Assembly: GCA_965242795.1 (NCBI GenBank)
Contig: OZ251505.1
Coordinates: 1,150,173-1,214,172, forward strand
From: an uncultured Candidatus Binatia bacterium
GTDB taxonomy: Bacteria > Desulfobacterota > Binatia > Bin18
Direction: 5' to 3'
Length of the DNA: 64,000 bases
Shown piece after piece: positions 1 to 17,325 of the stretch. The translations under genes were made by a program, and so were the position numbers. Positions within the stretch are counted from its first letter, which is position 1; the number at the start of each line of letters is the position of its first letter. The notes under the pieces were generated by a model. The model did no database searches, was not told the DNA's origin, and saw only the letters and a program-made list of their open reading frames with translations.

Positions 1-167
1 CGCAACTTCCGGAGAGCATGGGGCGGCATAATTCAATCGGGTCTCCCGGGCGAAATGTCTCATGCCACGGGCCCTGGCGACGTCGCGCAAGGTCGGCAGA
101 GAAACCGCCCTGCTATCTTCGGATTCGTCTTTCTAGGACGCAGGCGGCCGGTCTCCCCGGTTTCGTG

Positions 168-313
168 CTGTCCCAACGTCTCGTTCGATAGCGTCCCGAT
201 CAGCCGGCCTTGTGCATCGTCCCCACCTGTCAGGCTCCCTTCAGGCGGTCTCACAGCGCCATCAACTCCTGAACCTTGGTGACGATGCGGCCTTGCTTGA
301 CGAGGGGCGGAAG
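168..313 (-). pseudogene. Degenerate copy of the hsdS 3' end (conserved C-terminal helix)
   Basis: Minus strand reads LPPLVKQGRIVTKVQELMAL*DRL/GSLTGGDDAQGRLIGTLSNETLGQ (one stop, one frameshift). It aligns by eye to the HsdS C-terminus LPPLAEQGRIVAKVEELMGLCDRLEESLTVGSDARGRLLEALLNEALEQ at 5950-6095. Confidence 0.8.
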
Positions 314-361
314 GTGTGCGGGTGAGATGATCTTTTGCCAAATCGTTCGAGGGGAAGCGAC

Positions 362-655
362 TCAGGCAATGGGCTGGATAGTCAGTTGGAGTCCAAGCGC
401 CCTCGCTACTTTGGCGACGGTGAAAAAAGAAGGGTTGCCCTCACTCGACAAGGCTTTGTACAACCCTTCGCGGGTCAGGCCGGTATCCCTGGCGAGCTGG
501 CTCATGTTGCGCGCGCGGGCAATCACTCCTAAGACGTGGACGATGAATGCGGGATCATCGCCCGCCTCCTCCAGGCAAGCCTCCAGGTACAGCCGGACAT
601 CTTCGTCATTCTTGAGATACTCTGCCGAGTCCCAGCGGGTTGTAGGAAGCGTCAT
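362..655 (-). CDS. Putative addiction module antidote (HI1420-like HTH antitoxin)
   Basis: 97 aa with WDSAEYL...YLEACLEE...IARARNMSQLARDTGLTREGLYKALSSEGNPSF; lies directly downstream of the toxin. Confidence 0.9.
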   Translation of the reverse strand: MTLPTTRWDSAEYLKNDEDVRLYLEACLEEAGDDPAFIVHVLGVIARARNMSQLARDTGLTREGLYKALSSEGNPSFFTVAKVARALGLQLTIQPIA

Positions 656-658
656 CGG

Positions 659-955
659 TCACCCCTCCAATTCGCCTGCCAATTCCTGAGCCTTTGAGAT
701 GTCGGCCTGCTGTGTTTTCTTCTCGCCGCCGCAGAGCAGCACGACAACTATGGAGCCGCGCTGCACGAAATACACTCGGTAGCCAGGACCGTAGTGGATA
801 CGAAGTTCCCGGACTCCCTTGCCGACTGGCCGCGTATCGCCGAAATGCCCCACTCCCATCCGATCTATTCGTGCCTGTATCCGAGCTTTCGCCCGCTTAT
901 CTCCAAGATTTTCAAACCAAGTGGCGAAGACTTCCGTTTTGCGGACCTCTATCAC
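659..955 (-). CDS. RelE/ParE-superfamily toxin (HI1419-like addiction module killer)
   Basis: 98 aa with motif GVRELRIHYGPGYRVYF...LLCGG.K..Q..DI..A; GTG start. Confidence 0.9.
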   Translation of the reverse strand: MIEVRKTEVFATWFENLGDKRAKARIQARIDRMGVGHFGDTRPVGKGVRELRIHYGPGYRVYFVQRGSIVVVLLCGGEKKTQQADISKAQELAGELEG

Positions 956-961
956 CTGTCA

Positions 962-990
962 ACTCTAGTTCTCGCATTGTGGACTGTCAA
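962..990 (-). promoter_or_regulatory. Sigma70-like promoter of the TA operon, probably leaderless
   Basis: TTGACA-N17-TAGAGT on the minus strand; the -10 box ends 6 nt before the GTG start; AGTTGACAG occurs twice. Confidence 0.6.
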
Positions 991-998
991 CTATCGGG

Positions 999-1169
999 TC
1001 AGGTCCGGTGTTGTGAAGGTCCACCAGTGTCGGCCTCATCCGGCTCCAGAACTCCGTGTAGGAGTGAACCAAACAGCCGCCCCCCACATCGTCCCCTAGG
1101 AGCCAAGCTCGCTTCCAACCGATCACACAGCCCCGTCAGTTCATCGACTTTGGCGACGATACGCCGTTC
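999..1169 (-). pseudogene. Second copy of the hsdS 3' end (5'-truncated)
   Basis: Open frame ERRIVAKVDELTGLCDRLEASLAPRGRCGGRLFGSLLHGVLEP...* with no start codon, cut off upstream by repeats. Clear nucleotide similarity to 5980-6080. Confidence 0.85.
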
Positions 1170-1173
1170 CCTC

Positions 1174-1273
1174 CGTCATTCCGGCCTCTCATACTCGTCA
1201 CATCGGCCCCTCCCACTCGTCATGCCGGTCTCTCATATTCGTCATTCCGGCGAAAGCCGGAATCCAGAGGACA
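1174..1273 (+). repeat. Three ~22-bp degenerate tandem units plus an RPE/dRS3-like palindrome (family C)
   Basis: Units such as CGTCATTCCGGCCTCTCATACT are followed by GTCATTCCGGCGAAAGCCGGAATCCAGAGGACA; the same arrangement occurs at 5826-5903. Confidence 0.8.
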
Positions 1274-1479
1274 CGTTCCTGAACGCCTGACGATGCGGAT
1301 AACCTCAATTGGAAGAAAGTGACGACAAGCCCCTGCCGGTTGCCTGCGTAGGAGTAAGGGGAAAACAGCGTCACTCGTCAACCGCGACGTTTCCGTATCT
1401 GGTCGAGTCTCTCGCTGCGGCTATCCGTTCGGGGGAAGACGGTTCCTCGATCAGGCGGTCGAGTTCTCGATCAGAAACG

Positions 1480-1511
1480 TATTGTATTGTGTCGCGCTAC
1501 ACGATACAATA
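1480..1511 (+). promoter_or_regulatory. Palindromic operator overlapping a sigma70 promoter
   Basis: TATTGTATTGTGTCGCGCTACACGATACAATA is a near-perfect 32-bp inverted repeat containing TTGTAT-N17-TACAAT; AGGAGG RBS at 1531-1536. Confidence 0.75.
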
Positions 1512-1544
1512 TAAAAAAATTCGAGAGTTCAGGAGGTCGGCCCA

Positions 1545-4500
1545 ATGGGCGAAAAACTAGAAACCCACGTACATCCGGGTAGTTACATCCGAGAGAACGT
1601 AATTCCGCCGGGTATGTCGGTGACGGGCGCCGCAAAGAGGTTGGGGGTAGGTCGGCCCGCGTTGTCGAACTTGCTGAACGGAAAGTCGTCGCTTTCCCCC
1701 GACATGGCCGTCAAGATGGAAAAGTCCTTCGGCGTTGACCGGAAGAAGCTCCTTGATCTTCAGGCAACGTTCGACCGACACAAGCAGCGCGGAAAAGAGA
1801 AGACCGTCACTGCGCGCCGCTACGTTCCTCCTTTCCTGACCATCAAAGCCGGGCAGATCAATGATTGGGCGAGCAAGATCGACGCCCGCCACAAGCTGCC
1901 GGTGCTGCTGCGCAAGCTGGTGCATTCGACCGGCCATGAACTGCGTCGGGTTGATTTCCCTGGGTACGACAACGCGGAACGGAAAGGCTGGGATGGGGCT
2001 GTCGAAGCGGATGCGGCGACACCGTGGATTCCTGAAGGCGAGTCCCGCTGGGAGTTCGGCACGAACCAGGAGCCGCGCCGCAAGGCCGAAAGCGATTACG
2101 CAGCCCGCCTTCGTTCGGTCTTTGCATCTGACAGGTCGGACTGCACCTTCGTTTTCGTCACTCCGCGCAATTGGCCCGGCAAGAACGAGTGGGCTGAGGG
2201 GAAGAACAAAACAGGGGAATGGAAATCGGTGAGGGCGTTCGACGCGAGCGACCTGGAGCAATGGCTGGAAGAATCCATTCCCGCGCAGATGTGGCTTGCC
2301 GAGCAAATCGCCATGCCGGTCAGCGGATTCGAGATGCTGGATCGGTGCTGGCAACGCTGGACGGACGCGAGTGAGCCGAAGATGACCCACAAGATATTCG
2401 AACCGTCAATCAGCACGTTTCGAGAGACTTTCAAAAAGTGGATCGATAAACCAAGCGAAAAACCGTTGGTGATCGCAGCCGATTCCAAGGATGAAGCCCT
2501 TGCGTTTCTCTCCTGCCTATTCAGACATGAGGACATTACCCCTGGCCTGGGAGACATCGCCGTCGTGTTCAATTCGGCTGAAACCCTGCGGACTCTGGCT
2601 GATTCGTCTGCGTCGTTCATCCGGATCGTTCACACCGAAGAAGCCGAACGCGAATTAGCGGGTGTCTATCGCCGGCGCCACTGCATCATCGTTCGTCCCC
2701 GCAATGCGGTTGATTCGAAGCCGGATATTGCTCTGGAGCTATTGAGCCACGAAACTTTTAAAAACGCCCTCGCCGCGATGGGAATAAACGATGACAAGGT
2801 TGAGCGGCTGGCAAGAGAGTCTGGCCGCTCTCCGACTATCTTGCGCCGGAGACTCTCGAAAATCGAGGCGATCAGAAAACCTGAATGGGCCAGGGATAAC
2901 AAGGTGGCAAGAAGTCTGATCCCGATGACGTTGATCGGTGCGTGGCATACCGCGTCGGAGGCTGATTGTGATGTTCTCGAAACCCTCGCAGGCAAAAAAC
3001 CCTATGAGCGAATTGAGAAGGGCGTAGCAGACCTTCTGCAATTCGATGACTCCCCCGTCTGGTCCACCGGTCAATATCGCGGCGTCGCCTCGAAAATCGA
3101 CGCCCTGTTTGCCGTCAATAGATATGTAATAGAACAGGACCTGATGAAGTTCTTCCGGCTCGCTGAAGACGTGCTTTCCGAAAGCGATCCTGCGCTTGAA
3201 ATTCCAGAAGACCAGAGATGGGCCGCCGGCGTATACGGTAAGGTTCGCAAGCACTCCGCTGCACTGCGCGAGGGGATTTGTGAGACACTCGTCATCCTCT
3301 CCGTCCATGGGAACATTTTGTTCAAAGATCGACTTGGGATCGACGTCGCCGGACGTGTTTCCTCGCTCATCCGAAAACTCCTCACGCCGCTGTCCGACAA
3401 ACTGCTCTCCCAAAGGGAAGACCTTCCACACTATGCCGAAGCGGCGCCGGATGAATTTCTGAGCATCATAGAAGAAGACTTGCGGCAGCCTCAGCCCGTG
3501 GTATTTGATTTATTGAAACCTGCGAAGAACTTCTTGAGTTCGCCGATGCGGTCGGGACTCCTGTGGGCGTTGGAATGCCTCGCTTGGAAGCACCTTGTCC
3601 GGGTGAGCCTGATACTTGCGCGATTATCGAAACTCGCTATCGACGACAACTGGGGCAACAGGCCCATAGGAAGTCTATCCGCAGTTTACCTCTCATGGCT
3701 GCCGCAAACCGCGGCTTCTCTCGAAGACCGGATACAGGCACTGCAGAAGGTGACAAAGGAATTCCCGGGTATCGGTTGGGAACTGTGCACCGGTCAATTC
3801 GAGACGATCTCCCAGATCGTGAGCCCGAGTTACCGCCCACATTGGCGTAATGATGCTTCGGGCAGCGGCGGTCCGGTGACTCGGAAAGAATCCAACGAGT
3901 TCAGGCGTAAGGCGCTCGACCTTGTCCTCGCATGGCCTCGGCACGACCAGAAGACACTCAGCGACCTTGTTCAGCGTCTCCCAGTACTATCCGATGAAGA
4001 CCAAAGAACAATTTGGGATTTGATTGACGCTTGGGCAGATTCGGAGTCTGATGAATCGACCAAAGCTCTCCTTTGCGAGCAGATACATACCACCACGTTC
4101 GCCCTTGGAGCGCGGCGCCGTGGGGTAACGGACGGGACGAAAAACCGAGCACGTAGAGCGTGCGAAAAGCTGCAACCGCGGAATATCGTCACCAAACACG
4201 CTCGACTTTTCGCCAGAGACTGGATCGCTCCGTCTACAGACGATGCTCAAGACGAAAATCTCGACTACCCTCAACATGAAGAGAGAATAAACCAACTCCG
4301 CGCCGCGGCAATGAAGGAGATATGGCAAGAGCACGGGTTTGAAGGGATGAAGTCTCTCTTGTCCCGAAGCGCTGCACCGAATGCCGTCGGACGTTCTTTG
4401 GAGTCATGTATCGAAGATCCGCAGGTGCGGATCGAACTGTTACAGAAATGCTTTTCCGTTACTGGTGACATGAAGAAAAAATTTGACGGCTGTGTCCAAG

Positions 4501-5624
4501 GATTCCTCCTAGCCTCTGCGGACGAAGTGCGCGCTGTGGTTCTCTCGGCCGTTGCTGGGGGGATGGACGCGAATCAGATCGTACGGTTGTTTTGCCGGGC
4601 GCCATTCAAGCAGCATACATGGCGTCTGCTTGACGACTACGGAGAAAGGGTCAAGGATGAATACTGGAGAGAAGCCCAGCCTCACTTGGGACGCTACAGC
4701 GAGGCGGAAATAATCGAACTCATAGATCGTCTGCTTGAAGCAGGGCGTCCGCGTGCTGCCTTCGCCGCTGTAAACATCAAGTGTGACCAAGTTGAGACAG
4801 CGAGCCTAAAACGTCTCATCTTCGCTCTCGCCAACGTCAGCAACGAGTCCGAAGATCACTACCGATTTGAGCCTTGGGACATCTCGATGGTATTGGATTC
4901 ACTGGATGGCCGTCCTGGCGTCACCTCGTATGAAATGGCACAGATCGAGTTCGCGTTCATAGCTGCCCTTAAAGACAGTGGGCACGGAATTCCCAATTTG
5001 GAGCGAGCAATCGCCGAATCCCCGGCTCTCTTCGTTTATGCCTTAGCTCTGGCAGTCACGCGAAGAGACAAGAACGACGAGCAGGATCCGCCCGAATGGC
5101 AGATCGAAAATCCTGAGCGACGCGCTAATCTATCCCTTGCAGCTTGGGGTCTCCTTAATCGAATCGGACGGACTCCGGGCACTGGTCCAGGTGGCGAGAT
5201 TGATACCGATGCCCTGCTCGGTTGGATAATTGAGGTGCGGCGGCTTTGTACCGAGCATGATCGTGCGGTGATCGGGGATCAGATGATTGGACAACTTCTT
5301 TCCAAGGCTCCTGCGGAGAATGGTGACGGTTGGCCCTGCATCCCAGTCTGCGAGTCAATGGAAAAGATTGCTTCTCGTGAGATCGGTAAGGGGTTTGCGA
5401 TTGGCGTCTATAACAGTCGCGGCATACACTCACGAGGTATAGACGAGGGGGGCGATCAGGAGCGTGAGCTTGCCGCGAAATACCACGGCTGGGCAAAGTT
5501 ACGCGCCTTCGACTATCCCTACGTCAGCAGGGTGCTCGAAAATATCGCGGCTGGCTATGATCGAGATGCAGAGCAAGAGGACAACGAGAGACTCCTCGAG
5601 AAGAGGCTAGGCATTCATCATTAG
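1545..5624 (+). CDS. Large HigA/XRE-HTH fusion protein with putative PD-(D/E)xK-like domain and helical repeats; candidate defence protein
   Basis: 1359 aa, good RBS, lower GC than the hsdR/hsdM flank. N-terminus HPGSYIRE...AAKRLGVGRPALSNLLNGK is HigA-like, followed by a GWDG...WEFG...FVFVTPR segment. Domain calls beyond the HTH are inference. Confidence 0.75.
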   Translation: MGEKLETHVHPGSYIRENVIPPGMSVTGAAKRLGVGRPALSNLLNGKSSLSPDMAVKMEKSFGVDRKKLLDLQATFDRHKQRGKEKTVTARRYVPPFLTIKAGQINDWASKIDARHKLPVLLRKLVHSTGHELRRVDFPGYDNAERKGWDGAVEADAATPWIPEGESRWEFGTNQEPRRKAESDYAARLRSVFASDRSDCTFVFVTPRNWPGKNEWAEGKNKTGEWKSVRAFDASDLEQWLEESIPAQMWLAEQIAMPVSGFEMLDRCWQRWTDASEPKMTHKIFEPSISTFRETFKKWIDKPSEKPLVIAADSKDEALAFLSCLFRHEDITPGLGDIAVVFNSAETLRTLADSSASFIRIVHTEEAERELAGVYRRRHCIIVRPRNAVDSKPDIALELLSHETFKNALAAMGINDDKVERLARESGRSPTILRRRLSKIEAIRKPEWARDNKVARSLIPMTLIGAWHTASEADCDVLETLAGKKPYERIEKGVADLLQFDDSPVWSTGQYRGVASKIDALFAVNRYVIEQDLMKFFRLAEDVLSESDPALEIPEDQRWAAGVYGKVRKHSAALREGICETLVILSVHGNILFKDRLGIDVAGRVSSLIRKLLTPLSDKLLSQREDLPHYAEAAPDEFLSIIEEDLRQPQPVVFDLLKPAKNFLSSPMRSGLLWALECLAWKHLVRVSLILARLSKLAIDDNWGNRPIGSLSAVYLSWLPQTAASLEDRIQALQKVTKEFPGIGWELCTGQFETISQIVSPSYRPHWRNDASGSGGPVTRKESNEFRRKALDLVLAWPRHDQKTLSDLVQRLPVLSDEDQRTIWDLIDAWADSESDESTKALLCEQIHTTTFALGARRRGVTDGTKNRARRACEKLQPRNIVTKHARLFARDWIAPSTDDAQDENLDYPQHEERINQLRAAAMKEIWQEHGFEGMKSLLSRSAAPNAVGRSLESCIEDPQVRIELLQKCFSVTGDMKKKFDGCVQGFLLASADEVRAVVLSAVAGGMDANQIVRLFCRAPFKQHTWRLLDDYGERVKDEYWREAQPHLGRYSEAEIIELIDRLLEAGRPRAAFAAVNIKCDQVETASLKRLIFALANVSNESEDHYRFEPWDISMVLDSLDGRPGVTSYEMAQIEFAFIAALKDSGHGIPNLERAIAESPALFVYALALAVTRRDKNDEQDPPEWQIENPERRANLSLAAWGLLNRIGRTPGTGPGGEIDTDALLGWIIEVRRLCTEHDRAVIGDQMIGQLLSKAPAENGDGWPCIPVCESMEKIASREIGKGFAIGVYNSRGIHSRGIDEGGDQERELAAKYHGWAKLRAFDYPYVSRVLENIAAGYDRDAEQEDNERLLEKRLGIHH

Positions 5625-5670
5625 TCGTCAGTCGTCGTTCTTGTGGAAGTGATGAGCGAGACACGACGGG

Positions 5671-5704
5671 GTGTCCTCTGGATACCGGCTTTCGCCGGTA
5701 TGAC
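5671..5704 (-). repeat. Family C palindrome, inverted copy
   Basis: TGTCCTCTGGATACCGGCTTTCGCCGGTATGACG is the reverse complement of the 1241/5871 element with 2 mismatches. Confidence 0.8.
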
Positions 5705-5825
5705 GCAACAAAGGATGGGTATGATGGAGATGTGTGCCCAGTTGCCACTACGAAAAGTCAACGGGAGACGTGAACAGGGTTGGCGTCCCGCTCCAATGAC
5801 TCACGCCCGTTCAGGTGTCTGCCGT

Positions 5826-5903
5826 CATCATTCCAGCGTCTCATGCGCGTCACTCTGGCGTCTCATCCTCGTCATTCCGGCGAAAGCCGGAATCCAGAGG
5901 ACA
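5826..5903 (+). repeat. 22-bp tandem units plus family C palindrome
   Basis: The 33-bp core is identical to 1241-1273. Confidence 0.8.
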
Positions 5904-5924
5904 GCCCCCGCGTCCGGACTCCCG

Positions 5925-6794
5925 CTAGTCAATATCCCCCATCCCGCCCTGCTCCAATGCCTCGTTCAACAGAGCCTCTAACAGGCGGCCACGGGCGTCG
6001 CTGCCAACGGTAAGGCTCTCTTCCAGCCGGTCACACAACCCCATCAGTTCCTCGACTTTGGCGACGATGCGACCCTGTTCGGCCAAAGGTGGAAGAGGGA
6101 GGGGTATTCCGGCGACAATCTTCGCCGAGACTTCTTTGAAGGTCGTTCCTGGGGCTCTCGCGTTAATTTCGGGAGCAAAAGTTTTCATGGAAAGTGCAAT
6201 GAAGCGTGAACAATCGGGAATATAGGGAACTATAGATTTGAAGCCTTGGTTGGTTGAGACAGGATTAGCTGCGATTGCGACGTAACCTATTGGAGCCCGG
6301 CTTGTGAAAAGCACAGTTCCGACTGGCATCAGACTCGCTGACGAATTTTGAAACCCCTTCTCCGAAAGATCACGCGCTCCATGTGAGATGAACAATCCTG
6401 AGAATCCTCCCAGGTCAGCGGGAGTCAGCCAGGGAATACCCGTTCCTGGGTCCTTAAAGTTGTCGGCCTCGTTGGCAGATGGGGTACCTCCTCCAACAAT
6501 GGCACCGACGGCATCGAGCCTGACCCATTGCCAACACGTGGGAATCTCGAAAGGAGAAGAAATATCCTCACCATCGGCAATGAGACGGGGCCTTCTTATT
6601 TTTTTCGTCTTCACCAACCGCGCCTTCTCCTTCGCAATCCGCTTCAGCAACGCCGCCGCGGGTTCGTCCGCCGGGTCTTGCGGCACGAGCTTGCCCCGCA
6701 CGGCGAGGTCGAGAATGAACCGCCGCAGCCGGTGCACGGACGCCGGCGACTGCATCAGCCGGTCGAAGTCGCTGAACAAAGCCTCGATGCTCAT
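5925..6794 (-). CDS. hsdS: Type I R-M specificity subunit, half-length (single TRD)
   Basis: 289 aa: LRRFILDLAVRGKLVPQDP.DEPA, FEIP..WQW, one TRD (GGGTPS...SRAPIGY...TNQGFKS), then PLPPLAEQ.RIVAKVEELM.LCDRLE. Confidence 0.9.
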   Translation of the reverse strand: MSIEALFSDFDRLMQSPASVHRLRRFILDLAVRGKLVPQDPADEPAAALLKRIAKEKARLVKTKKIRRPRLIADGEDISSPFEIPTCWQWVRLDAVGAIVGGGTPSANEADNFKDPGTGIPWLTPADLGGFSGLFISHGARDLSEKGFQNSSASLMPVGTVLFTSRAPIGYVAIAANPVSTNQGFKSIVPYIPDCSRFIALSMKTFAPEINARAPGTTFKEVSAKIVAGIPLPLPPLAEQGRIVAKVEELMGLCDRLEESLTVGSDARGRLLEALLNEALEQGGMGDID

Positions 6795-7012
6795 CGTATC
6801 AGCGATTTGCGCACTTCGGTGGTCGAATAGACCGGTTCCGTCCCGGTGCGGACGCGCTCCAGAACGTCTATCGCAAGATAATAATCTTCCACGTCTTCAA
6901 GGCCGCGTTCGATCATCGCACGCAGATGAAAGGCTTTGCTGTGGCCGGTCTGCGAGACCAGCACGTCGAGCCGGTGCTCGGTGTCGGGCGTCGGTCGAAT
7001 CGAGGTCGCCAT
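6791..7012 (-). CDS. CopG/RelB-like ribbon-helix-helix protein (orphan antitoxin-like)
   Basis: 73 aa MATSIR...RLDVLVSQTGHSKAFHLRAMIERGLEDVEDYYLA; GGAGG RBS; stop overlaps the hsdS ATG (ATGA). Confidence 0.75.
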   Translation of the reverse strand: MATSIRPTPDTEHRLDVLVSQTGHSKAFHLRAMIERGLEDVEDYYLAIDVLERVRTGTEPVYSTTEVRKSLIR

Positions 7013-7154
7013 GTCGTCCTCCCTATTCGGGAATTTCATCCTGGACGGTCCGGGGACCGTTTCGACAAGCTCAACGGGCTTTCCTCGACCGTGTCGCAAC
7101 GGGTCCGGCCTTGCCGAGTTCCTCTCGTCCGTCGTTTCTCTCCATGTCGTGCAC

Positions 7155-8612
7155 TCATCGCAACAGCGCCTCCGCCAGGAGCGCCTTCAATTGCCGGCGC
7201 ACGGCCGCGGTCTCGGCCTCCGCGGCGGCCAGTTGCGCCAGCAGGGCCGCGGGGTCGCCGTGGTCGGCCGCGGCGGTGTGCGGGTTCTTGACGTCCAGGT
7301 TCCAGCCGCGCGCCGCAACGTCGTCCGCGGTCACCTTCCAGGCGCGGTCGGTCGGCGTGCGGCCCGTGCGGTCCGGCCCGCCCCACCAGTCGATGCAGTC
7401 TTGCAGGTGCTCCAGCCTGATCGGCTTGGTCATGGAATAGGCTTTGCGGTCCGCGGGCACGCGGTGCTCGTAGAACCAGAGGGCGCGGGTCGGCCCGGGC
7501 TTCTCGAAGAACAACAGGTTGGTGCCGATGGAGGCGTAGGGTTTGAAGACGGAGTTGGGCAAGCGCACGATGGTGTGCAGGTCGCACTCCTCCAGCAGGT
7601 GTTGCTTGAGCCGCGTCTTCACGCCCTCGCCGAACAGCGAGCCGTCGGGCAGCACGACCGCGGCGCGTCCACCCGGCTTGAGCAGCCGCACGATCAGGGC
7701 CAGGAACAGGTCCGCGGTCTCCTTGGTGCGGAAGTGCGGGGGAAAGTTGCTCTCGATGCCGTCTTCCTCCTTGCCGCCGAAGGGCGGGTTGGTCAGCACC
7801 ACGTCCACGCGGTCCTTGCGCCCCCAACCGACGTAGGGGCGCGCCAGGGTGTTGTCGTGGCGGACGAAGCCGGGGTCCTCGACGTTGTGCAGCAGCATGT
7901 TGGTGACGCACAGCATGTGCGGCAACTGTTTCTTTTCCACGGCGCGCAGGCCGGCCTGCATGCGGCGTTCGTCCCCGGGCCGCTTGACGTAGCGTTCGCG
8001 CATGTGGCGCAGCGCGCTGGTCAGGAAGCCGCCGGTGCCGCAGGCCGGGTCGAACAGGGTCTCGCCCGGCTTGGGATCGATGCGGTCGGCCATGAACGCG
8101 GTGACGGCGCGCGGGGTGTAGTATTCGCCGGCGTTGCCGGCGGATTGCAGGTCGTTCAGCAGTTGTTCGTAGATGTCGCCGAAGTGTTGGCGCTCGGTCA
8201 GGTCGTTGAAGTCCACGGCGTCGATGGTGTTGACGACTTGGCGCATGAGTTGGCCGGACTTCATGTAGTTGAAGGCGTCCTCGAACACGTCGCGCACTAC
8301 GCGCCCGCGGCGGTCGGCCCGCCCGTCGGTGGGCAGGTGCTTCAGGCCGGGGAACAGCACGTCGTTGACGAAGGCGAGCAGGGCCTCGCCGGTCGGGCCT
8401 TCGGGGTCCGCGGCCCAGGCGCGCCAGCGGAGCCGCGGCGGAATCGGGGAGGCGTAGCCGGGCTGCAGGAGTTCGAGTTCGCGGTCCTGGTCGTCGATGA
8501 TCTTGAGGAAGAACATCCAGCACAACTGGCTGATGCGTTGGGCGTCGCCGTCCACGCCCACGTCCTGGCGCATGACGTTCTGGATGGATTTGACGAGGGT
8601 ACGCACGGACAT
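7155..8612 (-). CDS. hsdM: Type I R-M methyltransferase subunit
   Basis: 485 aa with GEYYTPR, motif I FDPACGTGGFL and motif IV NPPF. Confidence 0.95.
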   Translation of the reverse strand: MSVRTLVKSIQNVMRQDVGVDGDAQRISQLCWMFFLKIIDDQDRELELLQPGYASPIPPRLRWRAWAADPEGPTGEALLAFVNDVLFPGLKHLPTDGRADRRGRVVRDVFEDAFNYMKSGQLMRQVVNTIDAVDFNDLTERQHFGDIYEQLLNDLQSAGNAGEYYTPRAVTAFMADRIDPKPGETLFDPACGTGGFLTSALRHMRERYVKRPGDERRMQAGLRAVEKKQLPHMLCVTNMLLHNVEDPGFVRHDNTLARPYVGWGRKDRVDVVLTNPPFGGKEEDGIESNFPPHFRTKETADLFLALIVRLLKPGGRAAVVLPDGSLFGEGVKTRLKQHLLEECDLHTIVRLPNSVFKPYASIGTNLLFFEKPGPTRALWFYEHRVPADRKAYSMTKPIRLEHLQDCIDWWGGPDRTGRTPTDRAWKVTADDVAARGWNLDVKNPHTAAADHGDPAALLAQLAAAEAETAAVRRQLKALLAEALLR

Positions 8613-9302: not shown

Positions 9303-11714
9303 TCAGGCGGTCTCCCGGTAGAGGGCGGCTTGCAGGTCGCGTGCCGCGGCGACGAAGGCGTCCCGGCCGCCGAACGCCCGGATCAACTGTACGGGCGTGC
9401 CGAGTGCGTCGAGCGGCGGAATGCGCAGCACGTCGGCGTCGTCGAGTGCGAGCACGCCCTCGTCCGCGTACTTGGCGAGCAGGGCGTCGAGCACGGCGCG
9501 CGCCTGGGCGCCGTATTTGGCGAAGACGTCGCGCCGCTGCACGCGGTAGGCGCGCTCGCGGCGGGTCAGCGGCTTGGCGTCGAACGCCACGTGGCAGATG
9601 AGGTCGAAGGGGTCCAACTCCTTGCCGAGTTCCGCGGCGATCGTGTCGAGTGCCAGCCCCTCGGCGTCCAGTTCGTCGAGGATCGCCTGCTTGCGCTCAG
9701 CGGCCTTCCAGCGGCGCAGGAAGTCGTCGAGGCTGGCGAAGCGCTTCCGCAACGCCCGCTTGGTGAAATCGCGCAGGGACTCGGTGACGAGCCGGCCGTG
9801 TTCGTCGAGATACTCCACCCGCTGGGCGACGATCGTCGCGCTGACGTCGTCCACATAGACCTTGCGCCGGCGGTCCGGCGGGGGCGGCGCGCCGGCCAGG
9901 ATGGTTTCGTCCGCATCGGGGACGGGCGGAATCCGGTCGTCCAGGGGCGGCGCGTCCTCGGGCGGGGTCATGGGGTCGTTTGCGCCCGGTTCGTAGATCT
10001 GGACGGGTTCGCCGTCGAAGTCCGGGTCGGCGAAGAGATTCGTCGCCCCCCGGAAATCCATCAGCGTGAAGTAGAACTTGCGCGTGTCCTCGTGCACGCG
10101 GGTGCCGCGGCCGACGATCTGCTTGAACTCGGTCATGGAACCGACCGGGCGGTCGAGCACGATCAGCCGGCAGGTCTGCACGTCCACGCCCGTGGACAGC
10201 AGCCGCGAGGTGGTGACCAGCACCGGGCAGCGGGATTCCGGGTCGGTGAAGTTGCCGAGTTGCGCCACGCCCTCGGGGTCGTCGCCGGTGATGCGCATGA
10301 CGTAGCGCGGGTCGGTCGCCACCAGGTCGGCGTTGGCGTTGACGAGCGCCTGGCGCATGCGGCCGGCGTGCTCGCGGTCCACGCAGAAGACGATGGTTTT
10401 CTGGAAGCGGTCGCCGCTCTGCCGCAGGAACTCGGTGACCTTACGGGCGACCAGTGCGGTGCGCTCGGCCAGCACCAGGGTCCGGTCGAAGTCCTTGGTA
10501 TTGTAGAGGCGGTCTTCGACCTCCTCGCCCGCGCGGTCGCGCTGGCCCCGTTCCGGGCGGTAGCCGGCCACGTCGCGATCGACGTGCACCTTGACGACCT
10601 TGTACGGCGCGAGAAAGCCGTCGCGGATGCCCTGTTTCAGCGAATAGGAATACACCGGCGCGCCGAAGTACTGGATGTTGGAGGCGTAGCGGGTCTCCTT
10701 GGGCGTGGCGGTCAGGCCGACCTGCGTGGCCGCGGAGAAGTATTCGAGAATTTCGCGCCACGCCGAATCCTCCGCGGCGCTGCCGCGGTGGCACTCGTCG
10801 ATCACGATCAGATCGAAGAAGCCGGGCGAGAATTCGCGGAAGATCTTCCGGCTTTCCTCCGGCCCGGTGATGGCCTGATAGAGCCCCAGGTAGATTTCGT
10901 AGGCCGTGTCGATGCGGCGGGGTGCACCGGCGCGGGGGGCCCCGTCTGCGCGCCGGATGGTGCCGGCCGCGGTGGACAGCTTCGCCATGGCCGAACCGAA
11001 GGGCCGGAAGTCGTTGACCAGGGTCTGATCGACCAGCACGTTGCGGTCGGCCAGGAACAGGATGCGCCGCTTGCGGCCGGCCTTCCACAGCCGCCAGACG
11101 ATCTGGAAGGCGGTATAGGTCTTGCCGGTGCCCGTGGCCATGACGAGCAGGATTCGGTCGCGGCCCGCGGCAATCGCCTCGACCGCGGCATTGACGGCGT
11201 TGACCTGATAGTAGCGGGGCGTCTTGCCGCTGCCGTCGTCGCCATACTCCTGCAGCACGACGGCCTCGGCGGCGGGCGTCAGCCCCTTCCAGGCCCGGTA
11301 GCGCGCCCACAGGTCGTCCGGCGACGGAAAGGCGTCGAGTGCGAGCGTCGTTTCCCTTGCGGGGCCGGCGGCGGTCCGGTCGTGGAACACGAAGCCGGTG
11401 CCGTTGGACGAAAACACGAACGGCACGTGCAGCGCTTCGGCATAGTCGAGCGCCTGTTGCATGCCGTCGCCGACCGCGTGGGTCGCGTCCTTGGCCTCGA
11501 TCAGGGCAATGGGCAGGTTGGGTCGGTAGGACAGCACGTAGTCGGCGCGTTTGGCCCGGCCCCGGCTGACCAGGGTGCCGCGCACGATGATGCGGCCCTT
11601 GGTGAACGAGACTTCTTCGCGGATCTGCGTCATCGCGTCCCAGCCGGCGCGTTGCAGGGCGGGCGTGATGAACTTGGTACAGACGTCGCGTTCGCTCAGG
11701 CGTTTCTTGTCCAT
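9303..11714 (-). CDS. hsdR: Type I restriction subunit R, EcoEI/EcoAI-like
   Basis: 803 aa; nuclease motif ADY...IEAK, Walker A MATGTGKT, DECHRG, LTATP, QIVGRGTR; EcoEI-R-like C-terminus (DPFDLICHVAFD). Confidence 0.95.
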   Translation of the reverse strand: MDKKRLSERDVCTKFITPALQRAGWDAMTQIREEVSFTKGRIIVRGTLVSRGRAKRADYVLSYRPNLPIALIEAKDATHAVGDGMQQALDYAEALHVPFVFSSNGTGFVFHDRTAAGPARETTLALDAFPSPDDLWARYRAWKGLTPAAEAVVLQEYGDDGSGKTPRYYQVNAVNAAVEAIAAGRDRILLVMATGTGKTYTAFQIVWRLWKAGRKRRILFLADRNVLVDQTLVNDFRPFGSAMAKLSTAAGTIRRADGAPRAGAPRRIDTAYEIYLGLYQAITGPEESRKIFREFSPGFFDLIVIDECHRGSAAEDSAWREILEYFSAATQVGLTATPKETRYASNIQYFGAPVYSYSLKQGIRDGFLAPYKVVKVHVDRDVAGYRPERGQRDRAGEEVEDRLYNTKDFDRTLVLAERTALVARKVTEFLRQSGDRFQKTIVFCVDREHAGRMRQALVNANADLVATDPRYVMRITGDDPEGVAQLGNFTDPESRCPVLVTTSRLLSTGVDVQTCRLIVLDRPVGSMTEFKQIVGRGTRVHEDTRKFYFTLMDFRGATNLFADPDFDGEPVQIYEPGANDPMTPPEDAPPLDDRIPPVPDADETILAGAPPPPDRRRKVYVDDVSATIVAQRVEYLDEHGRLVTESLRDFTKRALRKRFASLDDFLRRWKAAERKQAILDELDAEGLALDTIAAELGKELDPFDLICHVAFDAKPLTRRERAYRVQRRDVFAKYGAQARAVLDALLAKYADEGVLALDDADVLRIPPLDALGTPVQLIRAFGGRDAFVAAARDLQAALYRETA

Positions 11715-16329: not shown

Positions 16330-17325
16330 CTACCCGCGCGGGTGGTATTTGCGGTGGACTTCGCGCAGACGCGCGCCGGCGACGTGGGTGTAAACCTGGG
16401 TGGTGGCGATGTCCACGTGTCCGAGCATAGATTGGACCGCGCGCAGGTCGGCGCCGCCGTCCAGCAGGTGCGTGGCGAATGCGTGGCGGAAGGAGTGCGG
16501 ATAGAGCGAACCGCCCGCGTCCGGGTTCTGCTCGGCGTAGCGTTTGACGACGTGCCAGAACATCTGGCGGGTGAGCGGTTTGCCCGACCGGGAGACGAAG
16601 GCGTATGGGCTGCTCCGTTCGCCGAGCAGGACGGGGCGGACGGTGTCGAAATAATTTTGCAGGCGGGCCAGGGCCGGGCGCCCGAGCGGGACGAGACGCT
16701 CCTTGTTGCCCTTGCCGCGCACGCGCACGAAGCCGGCTTCGCGGTTGATCCGGGCGACTTCCAGCTTCACCAGTTCGGAGACGCGCAGCCCGGTCGCGTA
16801 CAGCACCTCCAGCATGGTCCGGTTGCGCACTTCGAGGGGGGCGTCTTCTTTCGGTGTGGCGAGCAAGGCATCCACCCGCTGGCGGGAGGGGACGCGTGGC
16901 AGCGGGCGGCCGAATTTCGGCAGGCGCAGCAGCGCGGTCGGGTCGGTGCCGCCAAGTTCGTTTTCGCGTTGCAGAAAGCCGTACAGGCCGCGCAACGCGG
17001 TCAGTACGCGCGACTGGCTGCGCCCGGACATGCCCTGTTCGTGCAGACGGCCCAGAAAGCGGATCACGTGAACGGACTGTGCGCGGCGCAGGTCGTGGAC
17101 GTCCTGGTCGGCCAAGTGCGCGCGGAAGCGGTGCAGGTCGCGGCTGTACACCTCGACCGTGCGCGGCGACAGGCCCTTCTCCACGGTCAGATAGACCAGA
17201 TACGCGTCCAGCAGCGCATCCTCGGCCGCAGGTTCCGCCGGATTCCCCCTTTCAGGGGAATGACGGGGGAGGGGCGCCGGGGAGTGTGCGGTCTCGCCCG
17301 AAGGTTCCGACGGTGTCGCGCTCAT
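16330..17325 (-). CDS. xerD: Tyrosine recombinase XerD
   Basis: LYATGLRVSEL, GKGNKER, HSFRHAFATHLL, LGHVDIATTQVYTHV...HPRG; translationally coupled to glnD. Confidence 0.93.
   Translation of the reverse strand: MSATPSEPSGETAHSPAPLPRHSPERGNPAEPAAEDALLDAYLVYLTVEKGLSPRTVEVYSRDLHRFRAHLADQDVHDLRRAQSVHVIRFLGRLHEQGMSGRSQSRVLTALRGLYGFLQRENELGGTDPTALLRLPKFGRPLPRVPSRQRVDALLATPKEDAPLEVRNRTMLEVLYATGLRVSELVKLEVARINREAGFVRVRGKGNKERLVPLGRPALARLQNYFDTVRPVLLGERSSPYAFVSRSGKPLTRQMFWHVVKRYAEQNPDAGGSLYPHSFRHAFATHLLDGGADLRAVQSMLGHVDIATTQVYTHVAGARLREVHRKYHPRG

Follow-up and report, generated by a model that had tools for sequence, protein, structure and literature searches.

The window analysed here, 64,000 nucleotides of contig OZ251505.1 (positions 1,150,173 to 1,214,172; assembly GCA_965242795.1 of an uncultured Candidatus Binatia bacterium), begins inside a minus-strand type I restriction-modification (R-M) locus with the order hsdR, hsdM, a ribbon-helix-helix (RHH) gene and hsdS, followed by a slot for cargo genes, and in this slot the conserved 3' end of hsdS occurs two more times. 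These extra ends are probably relics of earlier resident hsdS genes, which would have been moved outwards step by step by ordinary recombination without a dedicated enzyme. It is also fairly likely that the locus as a whole forms the variable end of an EcoEI-like type I R-M island that has been transferred widely. The genes and gene ends concerned are the following.

9303-11714, minus strand: hsdR, with an EcoEI-type C-terminal domain
7155-8612, minus strand: hsdM
5925-6794, minus strand: live half-size hsdS, 289 aa, with an N-terminal conserved region, one target recognition domain (TRD) and the terminal conserved region (CR) C1 at 5946-6110 (Pfam Methylase_S, PADLOC Specificity_I, hidden Markov model (HMM))
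1545-5624, plus strand, convergent with hsdS: big cargo gene, 1359 aa, with an N-terminal HigA-like helix-turn-helix (HTH) and then about 1270 residues without known family
1032-1184, minus strand: relic 2 (C2), open, start-less terminal CR that begins at HMM position 11 of 60 (tblastn, HMM, translation)
659-955, minus strand: higB-like toxin, 98 aa, Gp49 / upstrm_HI1419, RelE/ParE family (PF05973; TIGR02683, 133 bits)
362-655, minus strand: higA-like antitoxin, 97 aa, dnstrm_HI1420 family, HTH (PF21716, 3e-25; TIGR02684, 120.6 bits)
153-322, minus strand: relic 3 (C3), distal dead terminal CR with an in-frame stop (...ELMAL*DRLKG) and then a frameshift (tblastn, HMM, translation)

The live gene has what characterizes a type I specificity subunit, a Methylase_S TRD (PF01420, 4.6e-20) with hsdM and hsdR adjacent, and because its PADLOC match (Specificity_I, 2.4e-67) spans only positions 37-294 of the 589-position model, it is a half-size hsdS with one TRD. 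An earlier note, made from the sequence alone, had described the hsdS end as present three times in the same orientation, and this was confirmed in two ways. HMMs of the terminal, central and N-terminal conserved regions were built from 63 canonical relatives and used to scan the 4.2-Mb genome in six frames, and the terminal CR was detected at only three places, with 90.4 bits for C1 (E 1e-25), 56.8 bits for C2 (E 7e-15) and 29.5 bits for C3 (E 3e-6); the next match (E 0.006) lies within an unrelated hsdS elsewhere in the genome, and this whole-genome scan found no further copy left of window position 1. A tblastn search with the 289-aa HsdS against its own genome gave two additional minus-strand places that match the last ~55 residues, C2 at window 1184-1044 (53% over 47 aa, E 5e-6) and C3 in two frames at 322-218 and 242-153 (60% over 35 aa and 53% over 30 aa, joint E 2.3e-8), and both relic alignments are thus significant. 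In the translations, C1 is intact, C2 is open without a start, and C3 is broken by the stop and the frameshift, exactly as the note had it, and the big gene and the toxin-antitoxin (TA) pair do lie between successive copies. C3 starts about 8 codons before the LPPL motif and 40 bp past the higA stop, and it abuts the chromosomal flank, which is opened by a GSDH-like gene that starts at about window position 90 and runs leftwards. The 5' part of C2 has been overwritten by a repetitive extragenic palindromic (REP) element.

All three copies are of the terminal and none of the central type, and both relics match only the terminal conserved region. A reading of the half hsdS and C2 as one full-length gene that is split by the big gene is thereby excluded; in addition, C1 scores 90.4 bits as terminal versus 62.8 bits as central region and has its own stop. 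At the nucleotide level, C1 and C2 share only 54 nt with 88.9% identity and C3 has no match to either of them, which is why the three can be taken as the diverged ends of different alleles and not as products of a recent duplication. In a tree based on 57 CR columns, C1 and C3 group with the orphan CR of the sister species G016 (93/84) and C1 groups with C3 (99/64); the branches are long and the columns too few for a firm placement. A recent local duplication as the single origin of all copies is thus refuted by the nucleotide comparison, whereas the tree would allow an old common origin of C1 and C3. The increase of decay with distance from the live gene, which the earlier note had emphasized, holds for this locus but is not a rule, because G002, the only other locus with two relics, scores both of them alike (39 and 36 bits).

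The idea that older ends together with their cargo were pushed outwards gained support from three correspondences between relics and live hsdS ends. C2 (window 1163..1038) aligns with the live hsdS end of L039 (12904-13029; 71.5%), including the ...LEPD tail, and the higBA region behind it (window 995..328) aligns with L039 13332-13999 at 81%; L039, which is labelled Terriglobia, thus has a live half hsdS that is followed by the same higBA. The orphan CR of L039, which there lies behind the big gene, and the adjoining gene for a 299-aa protein have their counterpart in G002, where a live hsdS end precedes the same gene (77.7% over 1074 nt). Orphan 1 of G002, in turn, and the live CR of G015 share 93% identity, a value that equals the level in the orthologous flanks (92-94%), whereas the live CR of G002 itself reaches only 85.5% with that of G015. 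As three units of a relic and its neighbour are found live elsewhere, a relic can be seen as the former live end of a resident gene, and these comparisons support that older hsdS ends and their neighbours would have been displaced outwards by newer ones.

The cargo at this chromosomal site is variable. The sister species G016 shares the flanks with the window at 85-94% nucleotide identity; the homology ends at the GSDH start (window -61) and resumes exactly at the border of the hsdS N region and the TRD (window 6606, 91%), is interrupted once more between hsdS and hsdM, where the window has the RHH gene and G016 has VapBC, and then continues via hsdM, hsdR and the M20 peptidase gene. In the interval, G016 contains a full-length hsdS, the stop of which overlaps the start of a gene for a 651-aa ABC/OLD-like ATPase, and furthermore an orphan CR of its own, an ImmA-HTH/PIN pair and a different higBA. 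Identical, fixed cargo among the relatives is therefore ruled out. In the window, cargo and TRD have a GC content of 51-58%, compared with 65% in the genome and 68% in hsdM and hsdR. Public sequencing runs, which were used in the form of Logan contigs, contributed a related strain from the metagenome of another study (run X1), with contigs that cover C3, higBA, C2 and the big gene at ~94-97% identity; the hsdS TRD and C1 (5925-6608; for the TRD, 6001-6600) are left uncovered by the contigs of that run, one of which begins precisely at the N/TRD border (6609). The strain may have another specificity allele, although a gap in contigs is no proof of this.

A scan of one-genome-per-species contigs for HsdM resulted in 80 loci with 76-86% identical HsdM in Binatia, Nitrospirota, Tectimicrobiota, Acidobacteriota, several Pseudomonadota and others, altogether at least ten phyla, and because such similar proteins are spread that far, the R-M system must be highly mobile and its exchange pool very wide. 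In these relatives, hsdS usually consists of an N region, TRD1, a central CR that is fused to a second N-like region, TRD2 and the terminal CR; 64 of the 80 loci have such full-length genes, six have true half genes (L026, L029, L036, L037, L039, L092), five end with the contig without a CR, and the rest are cut or interrupted. Orphan terminal CRs are present in 3 of the 61 survey loci in which the live hsdS is followed by 3 kb or more (one in L039, two in L059, which is identical to G002, and one in L097) and in 4 of 15 loci that were fetched from the own genus and G025 (two in the own locus, one in G016, one in G025:C36, and the two of G002), which amounts to 8 relics in 6 of 89 loci after removal of six duplicates. 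All eight lie downstream of the live hsdS on the same strand, with a cargo gene or repeat not more than ~210 bp upstream of the relic start; an N-region or TRD remnant was found beside none of them, and there is no second complete hsdS downstream of the first in any of the 89 loci. The relics start at positions 2, 2, 3, 7, 8, 11, 20 and 22 of the 60 HMM positions, six of them thus within about 10 codons of the TRD/CR border although their upstream neighbours differ. Such clustering is hard to obtain from random illegitimate joins and therefore suggests CR homology as the usual guide of the right-hand join, with a donor that already carried a CR behind its cargo or with a circular intermediate.

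The displacement probably proceeded in steps, as follows. The incoming piece would consist of the specificity part of an hsdS, that gene's own 3' end, and whatever followed it. On the left, it would be joined through the long and well-conserved hsdR/hsdM/hsdS-N region in a RecA-type reaction, and on the right at or just inside the C-terminal CR of the resident gene, in a homeologous or illegitimate manner. The resident 3' end, still joined to its downstream neighbour, would thereby be severed from its gene and shifted one step outwards, where it would no longer be under selection and would decay. At our locus, C2-higBA-C3 would then be the older layer and TRD-C1-big HTH gene the newer one, to which REP elements may have been added later. 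We infer this order of events and this route of recombination from the copies, their states, the homologies to live ends and the variable cargo, all of which are directly seen in the sequences. Base-level reading was possible for a single junction, where the 299-aa gene of G002 meets orphan 1. This junction is illegitimate, with a 2-nt microhomology, and leads into the middle of the old CR; about 5 codons of the 299-aa gene and the first third of the CR were lost, so that both partners are truncated.

Several points weigh against this history. A pair of near-identical genomes that represents the states before and after a single step was not found, and the order rests on relatives with 72-93% nucleotide identity. 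C3 may have originated locally and long ago from the C1 lineage, as the grouping in the CR tree would allow. In several independent junctions, the cargo ends exactly at the start of the CR, for which the displacement model offers no explanation. In L039, the modules have the order hsdS-higBA-big gene-orphan, which is opposite to that in the window, and no relic lies between higA and the big gene; some additions therefore leave no relic, or relics are deleted. The higA-C3 junction is co-inherited with its upstream gene in G025:C36, whereas by a simple rule a relic should travel with its downstream neighbour. Last, identical 35-bp direct REP copies flank the big gene and may have had a part in its placement.

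In another scenario, units of CR and cargo would loop out as circles between direct CRs and re-insert by a single crossover into the CR of a related hsdS, which would be integron-like and yet integrase-free. Direct CR copies indeed bracket cargo in the own locus, G002, L097 and G016, the TA cassette of G002 is flanked by repeats of CR tail plus REP whose shared tail is absent from the live CR of G015, the order of the same two modules in L039 is the reverse of that in the window, and the relic starts cluster at the CR border; circular intermediates have also been proposed for rhs elements in the available part of Jackson et al. (PMC2935791). We nevertheless regard such circles as rather improbable. 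With 54 nt at 88.9% between C1 and C2 and nothing for C3, recombination between the present copies would be rare, and they are too diverged for an efficient homologous excision. The mentioned G002 junction is illegitimate and truncates both partners, relics exist in only 6 of 89 loci, and a route for the transfer of non-replicating circles is not known here. No reliable excision or deletion variant was seen in the sequencing runs, whose contigs break at REPs, where the depth is very high; every contig joint in the vicinity has a side of just 22-31 nt that falls within a REP copy, which makes the joints unusable either way for deletion variants. Of the integrase-free, integron-like array that the earlier note had envisaged, the absence of an integrase stands, with none nearby, but the likeness to integrons found no support, given the rarity of relics, the illegitimate junction and the low identity of the copies, and nothing points to a repeated process with a dedicated machinery. 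A passive erosion of two or three complete tandem hsdS genes, or of whole operons, to their conserved ends, without any stepwise arrival, also has little probability in our view. Loci with multiple hsdS genes are common in type I systems according to the available part of PMC7394358, C1 and C3 group in the tree, and L037 (8165-11715) shows that local duplications do occur in the family, as it has a 1.78-kb tandem duplication (99.1%) that comprises the final 60 bp of hsdR, the whole hsdM and the N region of hsdS, with an orphan N region between the two hsdM copies. Erosion would have had to remove every N-region and TRD remnant at all eight relics, next to cargo genes or repeats within ~210 bp, and random deletions would not stop at the CR border for six of the eight relics; in addition, none of the 89 loci has a second complete hsdS downstream, and relics with their neighbours are live elsewhere.

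Islands can accrete in tandem at tRNA or other gene 3' ends, resulting in a gene with a restored end, cargo and a displaced end, repeated. The geometry of the locus fits such an accretion, and one could think of decayed integrative elements that targeted the hsdS 3' end, brought a replacement end, integrated in tandem and later lost their integrases. This is very unlikely, however, since neither an integrase at the end nor direct repeats with an identical core were found: C3 has no nucleotide match and C1/C2 have only their 54 nt at 88.9%, the cargo comprises just one or two genes, and no integrase or integrase fragment was seen near the locus. There are only three Phage_integrase matches (PF00589) in the genome, one at window 16330-17325 and the others at genome positions 928670 and 1988251, and the one in the window, which is the nearest tyrosine recombinase, is the housekeeping XerD (TIGR02225, 331.2 bits with a cut-off of 329.6) that lies beyond the M20, crotonase and MeaB genes. 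Serine recombinases (PF00239) are absent from the genome, and neither window 1-30000 nor the 18 kb left of the window encodes a tRNA. An integrase-bearing element inserted at an hsdS CR was not seen in the 89 loci, where no systematic integrase search was carried out. Alternatively, the big gene alone may have been moved in, or kept movable, by flanking copies of REP elements, which have features of miniature inverted-repeat transposable elements (MITE), independently of any hsdS ends. The identical 35-bp direct cores at 1239-1273 and 5869-5903, of which the left copy overwrites the 5' part of C2, would agree with that, as would a contig joint 1271->5867 in run X9. But there are ~85-95 REP copies in the genome and every assembly contig breaks here, the X9 joint has a 28-nt side that is indistinguishable from other REP loci, and homologues of the big gene are found behind hsdS in L013, L036 and L039. 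We give this possibility hardly any weight. A stepwise displacement is the reading that we prefer.

The closest parallel to such a displacement is known from rhs genes, in which laterally acquired C-terminal tips recombine homologously and displace those already present, so that arrays of dissociated tips result, as described in the accessible part of Jackson et al. 2009 (PMC2935791). As far as that part goes, both systems use a conserved part of a gene as point of recombination, displaced ends pile up downstream in the same orientation, and no dedicated recombinase is involved. The relics described here agree with this pattern in all eight cases, as each lies behind the live gene in its orientation and opens with a part of the CR (HMM positions 2-22 of 60), and displaced units were found as live ends elsewhere. 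Unlike hsdS, however, an rhs unit combines a toxic, variable tip and the matching immunity gene, with the conserved core on the 5' side, whereas the conserved piece of hsdS is the 3' end, with unrelated genes behind it (TA pair, 1359-aa HTH protein), and the hsdS arrays are short, with one or two relics, and rare. The earlier note did not recognise the arrangement as described, but the principle as such is known from its close parallel in the rhs system. With regard to relic hsdS ends between cargo genes, a search of the literature on partial, orphan or remnant hsdS genes and on hsdS hotspots, with supplementary candidate lists lying outside that search, found no paper.

The exchange of TRDs by recombination in conserved regions is classical for hsdS genes, as in the shuffling of lactococcal plasmid hsdS genes or the 'domain movement' in Helicobacter. 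There, too, the crossovers take place in the conserved regions on both sides of the TRDs, and the synteny between window and G016 breaks exactly at the border of N region and TRD, but the classical form swaps only the specificity and leaves neither relic nor cargo behind. Integrons and CALINs (clusters of attC sites lacking an integron integrase) share with our locus the polar array of small cassettes that are separated by a repeated element, whereas the window has no adjacent site-specific integrase (IntI) and no common promoter that reads into the cassettes, the big gene being convergent, and its repeated element is a decaying gene fragment; the repeats that bound the cargo have 0-89% nucleotide identity (attC structure itself was not searched). 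SpnD39III-type phase-variable loci also have several partial hsdS copies beside a live one, but in the sources as far as available these silent copies carry TRDs, are inverted and are shuffled by a neighbouring recombinase, whereas the copies in the window are direct, TRD-less, decaying and not accompanied by a recombinase. Accessory or defence-type genes are also known from fixed slots of type I operons, as described by 'guilt-by-embedding' (Payne et al. 2024, 10.1101/2024.01.29.577857) and for DarTG2 in the RRDM island of enteropathogenic Escherichia coli (PMC12255303), and one of these two sources calls the hsdS-hsdR site a potential recombination hotspot in its accessible part. The slot in the window differs from the embedded positions described in those parts, as it is downstream of hsdS at the end of the operon and not between hsd genes; relic hsdS ends are not mentioned in those parts, and the available main text of the Payne preprint has no occurrence of 'hsdS', 'recombination' or 'remnant'.

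If relic hsdS ends reliably mark the seams at which blocks of specificity and cargo were added, they would provide a cheap sequence signature by which accessory genes and candidates for defence genes can be found behind type I systems, would allow the acquisition events of a locus to be ordered, and would offer a concrete, testable route for the growth of defence islands that needs only host recombination and no mobile-element enzymes. One may go further and speculate, though this is on the whole unlikely, that the C-terminal CR of HsdS serves as a portable recombination anchor, by which any DNA that ends in a CR could be taken up behind a related type I system, whatever the phylum; a single event would then change the specificity and add accessory genes, and modules such as higBA, the 1359-aa HTH gene, the 299-aa gene and VapBC could be permuted between operons without mobile-element enzymes. 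If true, this would constitute a general integrase-free cassette exchange network that is centred on type I R-M operons. The main value of the relics is that they mark module seams and point to an uncharacterised protein family that is associated with type I systems.

This family, to which the 1359-aa protein belongs, has more than 3000 relatives, none of which is named beyond 'HigA family', and a profile search against the PDB matched solely the HigA-like HTH of residues 1-86. The protein or a homologue is encoded convergently just behind hsdS in all five loci seen (own locus, L013, L014/L030, L036, L039), which makes it a reasonable candidate for functional testing. The link to hsdS is not independently established, because these five loci were all found through HsdM. 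The big gene was found in 4 of 401 sampled genomes of the phylum, three times at 27-31% identity and without an hsdS CR match in the 1.5-kb flanks, and a metagenome scan for the gene gave one small locus. Residues D142, G148, D150, G151, W169, E170, G172 and K180 are invariant in relatives down to 27% identity and may recall a PD-(D/E)xK-type nuclease motif, which is only an impression from the sequences. The TA pair is a standard HI1419/HI1420 module. The term 'defence cargo' in the earlier note is a deduction from position; at E<=0.01, no PADLOC 2.0 family matched the 1359-aa protein, the toxin or the antitoxin, and PADLOC has no model for them.

Other features of the slot are a putative promoter and the repeats.

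962-990, minus strand: predicted higBA promoter-like site, TTGACA-17-TAGAGT, 10/12, directly after relic 2; conserved in L039
1170-1275, no strand assigned: REP/MITE-like repeat with its core at 1239-1273, a 35-bp identical direct repeat of 5869-5903
5671-5903, no strand assigned: two more REP copies, 5671-5705 inverted and 5869-5903 direct, the latter within the repeat stretch 5800-5905

The REP core is GTCATTCCGGCGAAAGCCGGAATCCAGAGGACA, and the identical 35-bp cores on both sides of the big gene are contained in similar composite repeats of ~100 bp. The same REP is present in G016 and, oddly, inside the hsd island of the Terriglobia-labelled L039. A junction 'RRER' that C2 seemed to share with the L039 orphan was rejected, because on the window side it is REP sequence.

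The 299-aa protein (L059 15436-16335, L039 18677-19579) has no NCBIfam match, the start of its gene overlaps the hsdS stop in G002, and by eye only, its C-terminal part could have a TIR or nucleoside-deoxyribosyltransferase-like fold. An ImmA/IrrE-HTH protein (spr1629-family repressor/antitoxin, 362 aa) with a 166-aa PIN protein is 68-80% identical in 13 loci of several phyla (L012 7088-8682 and 12 others), 1.5-7 kb behind hsdS, and is absent from the window's own locus. It looks like a conserved end module of this R-M island; an alignment of the 13 loci revealed no hidden relic upstream of it, and the conserved part is an operator-like promoter of ~80 bp. In two further loci, 4.6 kb (L055 15068-19665) and 1.8 kb (L064 11649-13482) lie between the hsdS N region and the central CR, where a TRD of ~0.45 kb would be expected, and this expansion is either an insertion into TRD1 or cargo that has replaced TRD1. 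A second orphan N region next to hsdM, besides that of L037, is found in L044.

The RHH gene between hsdM and hsdS is the remaining gene of the operon.

6791-7099, minus strand: RelB-like RHH gene, 102 aa (NF048017, 71.2 bits)

It shares an ATGA overlap with the hsdS start and lacks a toxin partner, and its homologues are found between hsdM and hsdS in L027, L033, L035, L038, L039 and L059; the protein may be an operon regulator instead of an antitoxin. About 5 kb left of the window, a 532-aa PIF1-like helicase fused to a WYL domain (L001 11595-13193, minus strand) is encoded among metabolic genes.

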